From positions 30,490 to 94,489 of the forward strand of contig MPDC01000009.1 of assembly GCA_001874255.1 (NCBI GenBank): a stretch of DNA of 64,000 nt, read 5' to 3'. The notes beneath the pieces were generated by a model, which was not told where the DNA came from, searched no databases, and saw only the letters and a list, made by a program, of their open reading frames with translations. Source of the DNA: Alphaproteobacteria bacterium MedPE-SWcel. Lineage in GTDB: Bacteria > Pseudomonadota > Alphaproteobacteria > Rhodobacterales > Rhodobacteraceae. Shown here piece after piece: positions 53,974 to 57,496 of the stretch; position 1 is the stretch's first letter, and every line of letters begins with the position of its first letter. Made by a program: the position numbers and the translations under genes.

Positions 53974-54890
53974 GGTTCATTCGACATATCACCCTCGCGG
54001 CATTGTTGCTCGCGGCCTGTGCTCCCGCGCAGGACAGCCGCCGGACCACCCCGGCGGCCTTCGCCAATAAAGCGGCGGCATCGGGACCCGCGAAGCAGTT
54101 GTTCGGGGCCAAGCGCAGCGCCTCTGCCCAGCGCCCGGCGCCTTTCGGATCCTACGCCAAGGGCTGTGTTGCCGGCGCGGCGCAATTGCCGGAGACCGGT
54201 CCGACCTGGCAGGCCATGCGCCTCAGCCGAAATCGCAATTGGGGGCACCCGGAAACCATCGGTTTTATCAGCGATCTGAGCCGTGTGGCAGCGCGCATGC
54301 CCGGCTGGCAGGGCCTCTATGTGGGTGATATCAGCCAACCCAGAGGCGGGCCCATGCTGTCGGGCCACCGCAGCCATCAGATCGGGCTGGATGCGGATAT
54401 CTGGATGCTGCCGCCTGAACGGCTCGATCTCAGCCGCGAAGCGCGGGAGAATATCTCATCCATCTCGCTGCGGCGCTCCAACGGGGCCTATGTGAACAGC
54501 AACTGGAGCGCCCAGCACCACGCCATTCTCAAGGCGGCTGCCGAGGATCCCCGTGTCGCGCGGATCTTTGTCTTCCCCGGCGCGAAGGTCAAAATGTGCG
54601 ATACGGAAACCGGTGATCGCAGCTATCTGCGCAAGATCCGGCCCTGGTGGGGACATCATTATCACTTCCACGTCCGGCTGAACTGTCCGCGCGGGGCGCG
54701 GGGCTGCGTTGACCAGGCTCCGCCGCCACCGGGGGATGGCTGTGACGATGCGCGCCAGTGGGTGGCCGACATCCTTGATCCGCCGCCGCCGAAACCCGCC
54801 GATCCGAATGCGCCAAAGCCCAAACCCCGCAGGGACTACACACTCACGGATCTCCCACAGCAATGCGCAGCCGTCCTATCCTCCGACTGA
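53970..54890 (+). CDS. mepA: Penicillin-insensitive murein endopeptidase (lipoprotein)
   Basis: TTG start overlapping MFS stop; lipobox LAA-C; GDISQPRGGPMLSGHRSHQIGLDADIW and GHHYHFHVRL. Confidence 0.92.
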   Translation: MRFIRHITLAALLLAACAPAQDSRRTTPAAFANKAAASGPAKQLFGAKRSASAQRPAPFGSYAKGCVAGAAQLPETGPTWQAMRLSRNRNWGHPETIGFISDLSRVAARMPGWQGLYVGDISQPRGGPMLSGHRSHQIGLDADIWMLPPERLDLSREARENISSISLRRSNGAYVNSNWSAQHHAILKAAAEDPRVARIFVFPGAKVKMCDTETGDRSYLRKIRPWWGHHYHFHVRLNCPRGARGCVDQAPPPPGDGCDDARQWVADILDPPPPKPADPNAPKPKPRRDYTLTDLPQQCAAVLSSD

Positions 54891-55786
54891 TCTCGCTCGC
54901 CATTGCGGCTTTGTTCATGCTCTACGCCGCGGCCTGGGCCGCGACTGCCGTGTGGAACGTCAGCAGGGCCGCGACCAACACGGCCGAATTCATCGGCAGC
55001 TACAGGTGGAATGTATCGGCGCCGTGGTTTGGTGGTCTCTCCGGCCTCGAAGTCACAGAGGACGGCACCGGGTTCACCGCGATCACCGACCGGTCCCATA
55101 GGGTCGAAGGGATCTTCCGGCGTCGGGATGGCCAGGTCTATGACATTCAGATCACGCGCGACCGGCGGCTGGCGGACCACGACCGGCAGCAGATCGCCAC
55201 CAGCAGAGAAGATAGCGAAGGTTTGGCCGTTGCGGCGGACGGGACAACCTATATCTCTTTTGAAAGCCCGCACCGAGTGGTCGAATACACGGAGAGCGGC
55301 ACACGCCAACTTCCGCATCCGCCCGACTTCACCACGTTCCGTTTCAACAAATCCTTTGAAACGCTGGCCGTGGACACGTCGGGCCGACTGCTTCTGGTCG
55401 CGGAAAAACCGTCATCGCAGCCAGGCGTGTCCCAGGTCTGGGTCTGGCAGGAAACAACCGGATGGCAAGGACTGGGCGCCTACCCCGGCCACAATGGATT
55501 TTTGCCGGTTGGCGCTGATTTTGGACCGGATGGGGGTTTGTATGTGCTGGAACGGAAATTTGGCTCCGTCGGATTTCGCACCCGCCTCCGACGTTTTACG
55601 CTCTCACGAGAGGGGCTTGCCGGGGGACAAATTCTGCTGAACACCGCTCTCGCACAGCATGACAATCTCGAAGGCCTGAGTATCTGGCGAGACGCGGCAG
55701 GGGCGCTGCGGGCGACGATGATATCGGACGACAACTTTCTCTGGATACAGCGCACGGAAATCGTAGAGTACCGCCTGCCGGAGTAA
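54863..55786 (+). CDS. Exported esterase-like/phytase-family beta-propeller protein
   Basis: N-terminal hydrophobic segment; FGGLSGL, DSEGLA, DNLEGL and ISDDNF. Confidence 0.8.
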   Translation: MRSRPILRLISLAIAALFMLYAAAWAATAVWNVSRAATNTAEFIGSYRWNVSAPWFGGLSGLEVTEDGTGFTAITDRSHRVEGIFRRRDGQVYDIQITRDRRLADHDRQQIATSREDSEGLAVAADGTTYISFESPHRVVEYTESGTRQLPHPPDFTTFRFNKSFETLAVDTSGRLLLVAEKPSSQPGVSQVWVWQETTGWQGLGAYPGHNGFLPVGADFGPDGGLYVLERKFGSVGFRTRLRRFTLSREGLAGGQILLNTALAQHDNLEGLSIWRDAAGALRATMISDDNFLWIQRTEIVEYRLPE

Positions 55787-55812
55787 CACCGCCCGGCCGA
55801 GTGGCGAATCGC

Positions 55813-55841
55813 TTGCATTTGCATCTGTGGCCCACTAGACG
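55813..55841 (+). promoter_or_regulatory. Putative sigma70 promoter of the riboswitch-VUT transcript
   Basis: TTGCAT-N17-TAGACG ending 30 nt upstream of the aptamer. Confidence 0.5.
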
Positions 55842-55871
55842 CAACGATCATTTGCGTCCTTCCACGGGTGC

Positions 55872-55903
55872 ACAAGTCTCCGCGACCTTGTCTAAAAAAC
55901 GGA
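55872..55903 (+). promoter_or_regulatory. Class I preQ1 riboswitch aptamer (predicted)
   Basis: P1 ACAAG/CUUGU; 10-nt loop UCUCCGCGAC; tail CUAAAAAACGGA; pseudoknot UCCG/CGGA; ends 7 nt before the ATG of a queuosine-precursor transporter. Confidence 0.8.
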
Positions 55904-55910
55904 TCCAGAT

Positions 55911-56543
55911 ATGACCCGCACTTATCTTCCTGGCATTCTTGCCATGGCCGCCGTTGTTGTGGCCTCCAATATCCTCGTTCAGTTTCTCTTCGGCAACTGG
56001 CTGACCTGGGGCGCCTTTACCTACCCGGTCGCCTTTCTCGTCACCGATGTCATGAACCGCGTCTACGGCGCCACCGCGGCACGCCGCGTTGTTCTGGCGG
56101 GCTTTGCCGTCGGCGTGATCTGCTCCCTTGTCGGCACTCAGATCATGGGCGAATTCGGCCCCCTCGTCACCCTGCGCATCGCCATCGGCTCCGGCGTGGC
56201 CTTCCTCGTGGCGCAACTGTCAGACGTGGCAATCTTTTCCGCATTGCGCGGGGGGAAATGGTGGCGCGCGCCGCTGGCCTCGACATTGGTCGGCTCCACG
56301 CTGGACACCGCCATCTTCTTTACAGTCGCCTTCTCCGGCGCCCTGACGGCGCTGGAACCGGCCAACGATGTCTCCTGGGCGGGCGAAATGCTGCCGCTTC
56401 TGGGTGCCGGACCTGTGGCGCCGCTCTGGGTGTCTCTGGCCGTGGCCGACTGGGGCGTAAAGCTCTCTCTGGCACTTGTCGCGCTCATCCCGTTCCGCCT
56501 GATCGTTGCCCGTCTGGCGGGCAGCCAGACCACCACGGCCTGA
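55911..56543 (+). CDS. VUT family (YhhQ/DUF165) queuosine-precursor transporter
   Basis: ASNILVQF, LTWGAFTYPVAFLVTDVMNRVYG, IAIGSGVAFLVAQLSDV and DTAIFFTVAF. Confidence 0.9.
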   Translation: MTRTYLPGILAMAAVVVASNILVQFLFGNWLTWGAFTYPVAFLVTDVMNRVYGATAARRVVLAGFAVGVICSLVGTQIMGEFGPLVTLRIAIGSGVAFLVAQLSDVAIFSALRGGKWWRAPLASTLVGSTLDTAIFFTVAFSGALTALEPANDVSWAGEMLPLLGAGPVAPLWVSLAVADWGVKLSLALVALIPFRLIVARLAGSQTTTA

Positions 56544-56627
56544 TTTCGCGCGAATTTCATTTGGCGATCCTCCGCATCCGTGCCAGTCTCAGGACTATCG
56601 GAAACAATGAGTAAAGGAGGTGATCCA

Positions 56628-56684
56628 GTGTCAAGAAAGGTATTGGAACAAGGCGCAGCAACAACCGGAGCGGCCCACCCCTGA
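56628..56684 (+). CDS. Candidate 18-aa peptide MSRKVLEQGAATTGAAHP
   Basis: GTG start 7 nt after GGAGG within AAAGGAGGTGATCCAG; TGA at 56682. Translation unproven. Confidence 0.4.
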   Translation: MSRKVLEQGAATTGAAHP

Positions 56685-56761
56685 GGCAGCCCTCGTTGGC
56701 AGAGGCCGCACCGGCCGGGTTGGAATGCCCTCACCTGCCTTTGTTCTCAACAGACCTTCGG

Positions 56762-56791
56762 AAGGGCCGCTCCAGATCGGGCGGCCCTTTT
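56762..56791 (+). terminator. Rho-independent terminator
   Basis: AAGGGCCGCTC-CAGATC-GGGCGGCCCTT followed by TT (T-run 56788-56791). Confidence 0.8.
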
Positions 56792-57076: not shown

Positions 57077-57496
57077 ATGCTGCAGATTAGCGATGATATC
57101 ACCCTTCAGGACTGGGAACTGACCGAGAGCTTCATGCGCGCCTCCGGGCCGGGCGGGCAGAACGTCAACAAGGTGTCCTCCGCCGTCGAGCTGCGGTTCG
57201 AGGCAGAGCGATCCCCGCATTTGCCCGCCCCTGTCAAAACCCGCCTGCGGCGGATCGCCGGTCGGCGCTGGACCAAGGACGGCGCGGTCATCCTGCAATG
57301 CGACGAAACCCGGTCTCAGGTGCGCAATCGCGAAATCATACGGGAACGGCTGGCCGATCTGATCCGGCAGGCCTTGGTCAAACCGAAACGCCGCATTGCG
57401 ACCAAACCCACCCGCGGCAGTGTCGAACGTCGCATCAAGGCGAAAAAGACCCGCGCCGGCGTCAAATCCCTGCGCGGCCGTGTCGACGGGGAATGA
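57077..57496 (+). CDS. arfB: Alternative ribosome rescue factor B (peptidyl-tRNA hydrolase)
   Basis: RASGPGGQNVNK, RSQVRNR, and basic C-terminal tail KPKRRIATKPTRGSVERRIKAKK. Confidence 0.95.
   Translation: MLQISDDITLQDWELTESFMRASGPGGQNVNKVSSAVELRFEAERSPHLPAPVKTRLRRIAGRRWTKDGAVILQCDETRSQVRNREIIRERLADLIRQALVKPKRRIATKPTRGSVERRIKAKKTRAGVKSLRGRVDGE

Follow-up and report, generated by a model that had tools for sequence, protein, structure and literature searches.

To our knowledge, the class I preQ1 riboswitches (preQ1-I) are the smallest riboswitch class, and they serve as a model for RNA-ligand recognition. The definitions of their types and their taxonomy reportedly go back to McCown et al. 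2014. In this study we analysed a stretch of 64,000 nt (hereafter the window) from Alphaproteobacteria bacterium MedPE-SWcel (assembly GCA_001874255.1, contig MPDC01000009.1, positions 30,490 to 94,489 of the forward strand), with attention to the short leader of its yhhQ gene for a queuosine-precursor transporter, in which an initial annotation had proposed a preQ1-I riboswitch. After comparison of this leader with those of its relatives, we consider it quite probable that it holds a class I preQ1 riboswitch of a type-II-like form, which represses translation.

Among the described systems, the aptamer of Thermoanaerobacter tengcongensis (Tte) reads 5′-CUGGG-UCGCAGUAAC-CCCAG-UUAACAAAA-CAAGG-3′ (PMC7641330, PMC10639078), and that of the Bacillus subtilis (Bsu) queC leader 5′-AGAGG-UUCUAGCUACAC-CCUCU-AUAAAAAA-CUAAGG-3′ (PMC10639078). 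Class I aptamers have in common the specificity cytosine before the 3′ strand of helix P1, the uridine U6 and the adenine that ends loop L3 (PMC11625349, PMC7641330), and the O6 of the closing-pair G contacts the aminomethyl group of preQ1 (PMC11625349). The pocket is capped by a Watson-Crick ceiling pair, which in Tte is G11-C30 with C7, and the roles of C7 and of U6, a ligand-contacting base in the solved structures, have been described (PMC11625349, PMC7641330). Types II and III are defined by AC before the P1 3′ strand (PMC11625349). In the type III switch, P1 contains three conserved G-C pairs and is followed by UU, the loop is shorter and rich in pyrimidines, P2 consists of U-A/C-G/C-G with U-A as its ceiling, and the tail is AAGG, with a linker that is long and variable; this type is found almost only in gamma-proteobacteria (PMC10622847); on yhhQ of E. 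coli it represses salvage when the internal pool is full (PMC10622847).

The pseudoknot fold ahead of yhhQ

Direct reading of the sequence gave a 32-base fold at window 55872-55903, 5′ of yhhQ, of which the anatomy agrees with the initial annotation at the level of single bases and shows all the structural hallmarks of the class I aptamers. Its parts, together with the gene that follows, are listed below (SD, Shine-Dalgarno).

55872-55876, plus strand: P1 5′ strand ACAAG; G55876 corresponds to G5, the floor of the pocket
55877-55878, plus strand: loop L1, U55877 (U6) and C55878 (C7)
55877-55886, plus strand: whole 10-nt loop UCUCCGCGAC, from U55877 to C55886
55879-55882, plus strand: P2 5′ strand UCCG (anti-SD); G55882 corresponds to G11
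55883-55886, plus strand: loop L2, CGAC; A55885 corresponds to A14 and C55886 to the specificity cytosine C15
55887-55891, plus strand: P1 3′ strand CUUGU; C55887 corresponds to C16
55892-55899, plus strand: loop L3, the A-rich tail CUAAAAAA, from C55892 to A55899; A55899 corresponds to the ligand-contacting A29 of Tte
55900-55903, plus strand: P2 3′ strand CGGA, pairing with UCCG at 55879-55882 and holding GGA at 55901-55903
55904-55913, plus strand: 7-nt spacer UCCAGAU and the ATG (55911-55913), from which the orthologues align from residue 1
55911-56543, plus strand: yhhQ, 210-aa queuosine-precursor (preQ0/preQ1) transporter of the VUT family, by profile matches

The P1 helix, 10-nt loop, A-rich tail and UCCG/CGGA pseudoknot of the initial annotation all lie where it had placed them, and its claim that the sole SD-like triplet ahead of the start codon, the GGA at 55901-55903, lies within the pseudoknot 7 nt before the ATG is confirmed by the sequence. 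The loop is as long as that of Tte and identical to it in 6 of 10 bases, these being the five positions that had been pointed out (U6, C7, G11, A14 and C15) and also C9. The minimum free energy fold of the single strand (z = -0.8) is uninformative, which is what one expects of a pseudoknot. A terminator-like match on the minus strand at 55919-55899 was discarded: it is only the A-tract read in complement, next to a weak hairpin, and no gene lies on that strand there.

The downstream gene had been taken for a member of the VUT/YhhQ family, in good agreement with the matches of the open reading frame (ORF) at 55911-56543 to PF02592 (Vut_1, E 2.3e-29) and to TIGR00697 ("queuosine precursor transporter", scoring 91.6 bits where the cut-off is 50.95), and the host, read from the letters as an alphaproteobacterium of the Rhodobacterales, belongs by lineage to the Rhodobacteraceae. 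The source genome (4.08 Mb) carries queC and queF in a cluster and tgt in addition, and therefore makes preQ1 itself, so that repression of salvage at high preQ1 makes sense.

Conservation, covariation and distribution

In the 80 closest YhhQ loci from species-representative genomes, all of Rhodobacteraceae and bearing NCBI names such as Roseobacter, Sulfitobacter, Phaeobacter, Marivita and Dinoroseobacter among others, the element is located just before the ATG without exception (80/80), in the consensus form 5′-(N)CAAG-U-N(0-3)-CCG-N(2-4)-C-CUUG-N(0-3)-A(4-7)-CGG-N-3′. For the analysis of covariation, 68 distinct sequences were registered by hand and padded with N (alignment A6), and a structure consisting of 4-bp P1 and 4-bp P2 was tested; the hand registration replaced an alignment by MAFFT, in which the 3′ tail was mis-registered, and another made with a covariance model, in which some bases of L2 and P1 were misplaced. 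Standard pairs were formed in 96.7% of the cells, and four of the eight pairs (three in P1 and one in P2) were changed on both sides. The covariation score was reached by none of 500 shuffles, a result that is not a probability because the sequences are related, and the pairing was halved when the 3′ partners were slid by one column. The covariation in orthologous leaders that the initial annotation had proposed to look for is thus present, together with the conservation of loop and tail.

The P1 core CAAG/CUUG is 99.6% paired: its first pair is C-G in 58 sequences, G-C in 7 and A-U in 2, the second A-U in 63, G.U in 4 and G-C in 1, the third A-U in 67 and U-A in 1, and the closing pair is G-C in all 68. 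The core of P2, CCG/CGG, is invariant, and its outer pair is U-A in 36, C-G in 8, G.U in 4 and U.G in 3, the remaining 17 being unpaired. Besides the G5-C16 floor, the invariant positions are U6, C15, the A before P2 and the G11-C ceiling, while the neighbouring P1 pairs vary; the four A's before CGG are constant except for two ACA variants and one AUA variant. The base ahead of C15 is A in most of the sequences, the window included (A55885, C55886), so that the P1 3′ strand follows AC; in the Sulfitobacter group this base is C, and the dinucleotide is CC. CGG is followed by A, G or U across the relatives, and by U in the Sulfitobacter group. Since these invariant positions are exactly the preQ1-contacting positions of the solved class I aptamers, the element is best placed in that class.

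The initial annotation had drawn P1 with five pairs. The fifth and outermost pair, A55872-U55891, indeed forms in the window, but it is possible in only 18 of the 68 relatives and cannot form in the other 50 (37 of the 48 in the first set), of which CCAAGUCUCCGCAACCUUGUCAAAACGGA with its 4-bp P1 is an example. The mean length of L3 is 8.0 nt with the fifth pair and 6.3 nt without, which fits the need for L3 to span the groove of P1.

A dedicated covariance model (R1) was built from 23 relatives of one length class, with the window's own sequence excluded. When applied to the source genome, R1 gave the window element as the sole credible match, at 32.8 bits (E 1.8e-5), the runner-up standing at 15.3 bits; in the que cluster of this genome, neither a second copy of the element by R1 nor a match to the Rfam PreQ1 model (RF00522) was detected. 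For the survey of the family, one genome per genus was taken for 151 genera of the GTDB family. R1 matched 120 of the 151 genera, yhhQ being present in 144 of the genomes. Of its 124 matches, 120 precede yhhQ on the gene's own strand at distances of 6-95 nt, which for 118 do not exceed 21 nt; the remaining four are the weakest, at 23 bits or below. Inspection by eye of 20 "missed" yhhQ leaders revealed recognisable variants in 8 (such as GGAAG/CUUCC, CGAG/CUCG and CCAAG/CUUGG) and no motif in about 12. Overall, about 85-90% of the Rhodobacteraceae genera bearing yhhQ carry the element, including the Roseobacter group and the relatives of Rhodobacter and Paracoccus. In about a dozen genera yhhQ is retained, at up to 79% identity, with the element lost or left as a remnant (for instance ...GCAACGGA), and these leaders are natural "riboswitch-less" controls.

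Outside the family, R1 gave only matches of 18-24 bits, none of them near yhhQ, in 301 genomes across the Alphaproteobacteria, and no similar motif was found in the yhhQ leaders of 28 other alphaproteobacterial families. After an exact-pattern scan of 185,579 species, 73 of the 80 among the matches listed were of Rhodobacteraceae/Paracoccaceae. The seven outliers were set aside: six have no yhhQ nearby and mostly fall within other coding sequence, and the seventh comes from a metagenome-assembled genome that has yhhQ. The position of the element, immediately before yhhQ, is exclusive.

Predicted control and competing explanations

Upstream of the pseudoknot, the leader contains the following candidate signals.

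55812-55817, plus strand: -35-like box CTTGCA of the putative yhhQ promoter, at -61 from P1
55835-55840, plus strand: -10-like hexamer CTAGAC of the same putative promoter, 17 nt after the -35-like box
55853-55872, plus strand: predicted hairpin P0, UGCGUCC/GGGUGCA, with 7 pairs (2 of them G.U) and the loop UUCCAC, ending exactly at P1

A CTTG box is found 45-75 nt 5′ of P1 in 68 of 81 orthologous leaders, and the relatives carry TA-containing hexamers at equal spacing from it, which suggests a promoter at 55812-55840 and a transcript start near 55847, although a simple scan for the sigma-70 consensus made no call at the -35-like box of this leader. P0 was predicted by RNAfold, run on the 32 nt that precede P1. 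Among 100 distinct leaders, the hairpin abuts P1 directly in 64 and ends no more than 2 nt from it in 87, with stem sequences that vary from genus to genus; in the window, A55872 could close P0 instead of pairing with U55891. In 81 leaders CGG and the ATG lie 7-12 nt apart, and because the aptamer ends so close to the start codon, there is no room for a terminator.

For the ligand, the direction of control, the start of the transcript and any role of P0, we infer the following scheme. The messenger RNA would start probably near 55847, so that P0 forms and then, directly, the H-type pseudoknot aptamer of 31-32 nt. At high preQ1, and probably also at high preQ0, the ligand would be stacked with G55876-C55887 as the floor and G55882-C55900 as the ceiling, with C55886 as its pairing partner and with U55877 and A55899 reading its other edge; its binding would thereby lock the A-rich tail in the groove of P1 and close P2 (UCCG/CGGA). 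The closed P2 is predicted to hide the GGA and to leave a compact, rigid knot 7 nt before the AUG, so that the 30S subunit would be kept from loading and no transporter would be produced. In the ligand-free state the A-tract and P2 would remain open, allowing translation of yhhQ. Under this scheme, the uptake of queuosine precursors in Rhodobacteraceae is predicted to be throttled by the internal preQ1 pool.

Several points weigh against a preQ1-I riboswitch at this locus. The register of the alignment was chosen by a rule favouring P1 pairing; the covariation of P2 is limited to one pair, because its three core pairs never vary, and that outer pair is mismatched in 17 of the 68 sequences. P1 has four conserved pairs against five in the characterised aptamers. 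In the Sulfitobacter group, where CGG is followed by U, the pseudoknot has no real SD to hide; in such clades the steric occlusion of the ribosome landing site and the loss of the A-tract may outweigh the hiding of an SD. The search with RF00522 that the initial annotation had called for was negative throughout: Rfam 15 gave no match to PreQ1 (RF00522), preQ1-II or PreQ1-III in the window at the gathering score, no preQ1-family match in a 181-nt slice at E<=10 and none near the yhhQ leader in the whole genome, and RF00522 alone matched none of 18 orthologous leaders and gave nothing above its cut-off (39 bits) in the 151 Rhodobacteraceae genomes. R1, in turn, does not recognise two canonical preQ1-I-like sites, and because each model misses the other form, the link to the class is one of architecture and key bases and not of profile score. 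The only Rfam match within the coordinates of the element, to flavivirus cHP, scored 13 bits and is meaningless.

The silence of RF00522 can be judged from a related genus (G422), in which the best match of this model is the textbook Tte-like aptamer 5′-ACCGG-UCGCAGCCUAC-CCGGU-CAACAAAAC-AAGGG-3′. This aptamer, ACCGGUCGCAGCCUACCCGGUCAACAAAACAAGGG, at G422:C33 around 2321-2363 on the minus strand, stands 8 nt before the start of queC (MKTLVICSGGLDS...) and scores only 28.7 bits against the cut-off of 39; the same genome thus carries both a canonical preQ1-I before queC and the present form before yhhQ. Because a textbook aptamer also falls below the cut-off, the silence reflects an insensitive model and is not a refutation: RF00522 is insensitive to these short, G+C-rich proteobacterial sequences. 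A further sub-threshold match of RF00522 (25.5 bits), CGCGGUCGCGCUUAAUCCGCGAUAAAAAAUAGGG, was noted at G335:C75 around 199174-199216 on the minus strand, where it precedes an ORF beginning MTHHRAQIMS... in a genome without yhhQ.

The alternative that survives best, which we nevertheless regard as improbable, is the same fold with a pocket tuned to another 7-deazapurine, such as preQ0, queuine or another salvaged base, which would make the element a specificity variant instead of a preQ1 sensor. YhhQ favours preQ0 over preQ1 and the class I subtypes differ in their discrimination between the two (PMC10622847); moreover, L2, the composition of P2 and the lengths of P1 and L3 differ from those of the characterised aptamers, and A14 is changed to C in one clade. 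The ligand-reading bases are, however, all retained, among them G5, which touches the preQ1 aminomethyl group through its O6 (PMC11625349), and the presence of queF in the genome means that preQ0 is converted to preQ1.

Somewhat less probable still is a conserved leader that senses nothing, that is, a site for a protein or small RNA (sRNA), for example a GGA-binding regulator of the CsrA type, a stabilising hairpin at the 5′ end together with an A-rich ribosome standby site, or a DNA operator CAAG-N10-CTTG. In favour are the shortness of the element, the likeness of its ACGGA to A(N)GGA sites and the fact that an inverted repeat changing symmetrically would mimic compensation; there is also no link by an Rfam profile. 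The DNA operator is rejected, since G.U pairs, which are meaningful only in RNA, are present in both P1 (4 sequences) and P2 (7 sequences), and the conserved loop and A-rich tail are strand-asymmetric; these G.U pairs and asymmetries point to an RNA element and not to a DNA palindrome. The CsrA-type site is rejected because the GGA is not conserved, the base after CGG being A, G or U. Against a non-sensing leader stand also the coincidence, one for one, of the invariant positions with the preQ1 pocket and the location of the element downstream of the conserved -35-like box. Chance resemblance in an ordinary intergenic spacer has a negligible likelihood: although hairpins of 5 bp with an A-run are readily found and Rfam gives no match, it is already refuted by the conservation, the element being present once in each genome and invariably ahead of yhhQ in 120 of the 151 genera, and by the E value of 1.8e-5 obtained in the source genome with a model built without the window's sequence.

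Taking these points together, the element is most likely a genuine, lineage-wide and uncatalogued member of preQ1-I, type-II-like and, in most relatives, compact. A RegPrecise survey of 2013, which covered 15 genomes of Rhodobacterales, contains just one preQ1 site, at queCDEF of Roseovarius sp. 217, and has no such site at yhhQ (PMC3766115). In the searchable literature on preQ1 in alphaproteobacteria, Rhodobacterales and the Roseobacter group we found no mention of the element, its inclusion in the type II set of McCown et al. 2014 being possible. On this reading, a whole bacterial family has an unannotated preQ1-I form on its queuosine-salvage transporter, and RF00522 systematically under-calls the G+C-rich proteobacterial examples; it could be re-seeded with the present alignment. 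The natural variants would also probe the lower limits of P1 and L3, with a 4-bp P1, a 6-nt L3, a P2 of G/C only and the change of A14 to C.

As to the surroundings of yhhQ, the neighbours show no visible link to queuosine: upstream (54863-55786, plus strand) is a 307-aa phytase-like esterase (PF13449), and downstream (57077-57496, plus strand) a 139-aa RF-1-domain protein with a GGQ motif, similar to the ArfB-type peptidyl-tRNA hydrolases. About 60 nt past the yhhQ stop, at 56605-56788 on the plus strand, a sub-threshold match to the Caulobacter sRNA CC2171 (RF01867) was noted (34.1 bits against a cut-off of 75; E 1.6e-5). This stretch has the box AAAGGAGGUGAUCCAGUGUC and a terminal G+C hairpin in common with CC2171, and a match of 25-40 bits lies 3′ of yhhQ in 17 of 18 related loci. 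In several other alphaproteobacterial families, yhhQ begins 0-40 nt past an ORF ending in ...GLDxFLxKA...LKRxV.K..., which suggests that the two form a conserved gene pair there, possibly with a ribosomal protein gene as the partner of yhhQ.

Comparison with known aptamers

The S-adenosylmethionine/S-adenosylhomocysteine (SAM/SAH) riboswitch (RF01727) resembles the present element in being a very small H-type pseudoknot, largely of Rhodobacterales, that hides the SD (PMC6411933). It precedes metK, however, and its sequence is unrelated, so that the likeness is an analogy only; a relative of SAM/SAH was rejected on the grounds of unrelated sequence and the lack of any Rfam match at the yhhQ leader. 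Among the class I types, type I is characterised by UC before the P1 3′ strand, UU after the 5′ strand and a second-ligand C in the tail, whereas the element has AC and U-C at the first two of these places.

The agreement is closest with type II, as represented by Tte and Bsu. The H-type pseudoknot, the G-C closing pair of P1, U6-C7, the AC before the P1 3′ strand, the G11-C ceiling and the A-rich L3 ending in A-C are alike. As in Bsu, P2 is a continuous Watson-Crick helix, and the window tail with C55900, CUAAAAAAC, matches Bsu AUAAAAAAC in 8 of 9 bases (PMC10639078); as in Tte, the SD is located within P2, and the control predicted for the element is translational. The differences are that RF00522 misses the element, that P1 is A/U-rich and only 4 bp long in most relatives, that L3 is 6 nt in most relatives against 8-9 nt, and that the G+C-rich P2, CCG/CGG, is without the two non-canonical pairs of Tte. 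In addition, P0 abuts P1, the gene is yhhQ and not queC or queT, and the distribution is within a single alphaproteobacterial family. One might read these differences as the mark of a fourth class I subtype, with the Rhodobacteraceae elements as the smallest natural preQ1-type aptamer (a core of 26-29 nt with 4-bp P1 and 6-nt L3), in which an obligatory P0 would stack coaxially and replace the missing P1 pair, and in which the all-G/C P2 and the altered L2 might shift the preference to preQ0, the base imported by YhhQ; we consider such a separate subtype rather doubtful.

From type III, known from the E. coli yhhQ leader (PDB 8fza; PMC10622847), the element differs in several places: its P1 core is CAAG/CUUG and is followed by U-C, its loop reads UCUCCGCGAC and its tail AAAACGGA, the ceiling pair is G-C, and the long variable linker is lacking. 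The two are alike in the regulated gene, yhhQ, in a proteobacterial host with de novo synthesis of preQ1, in the AC at the specificity position and in an SD held by Watson-Crick pairing in P2, with control in the translational OFF direction, predicted in the present case. The logic proposed for the Rhodobacteraceae leader is the same as that of the type III switch on yhhQ of E. coli.

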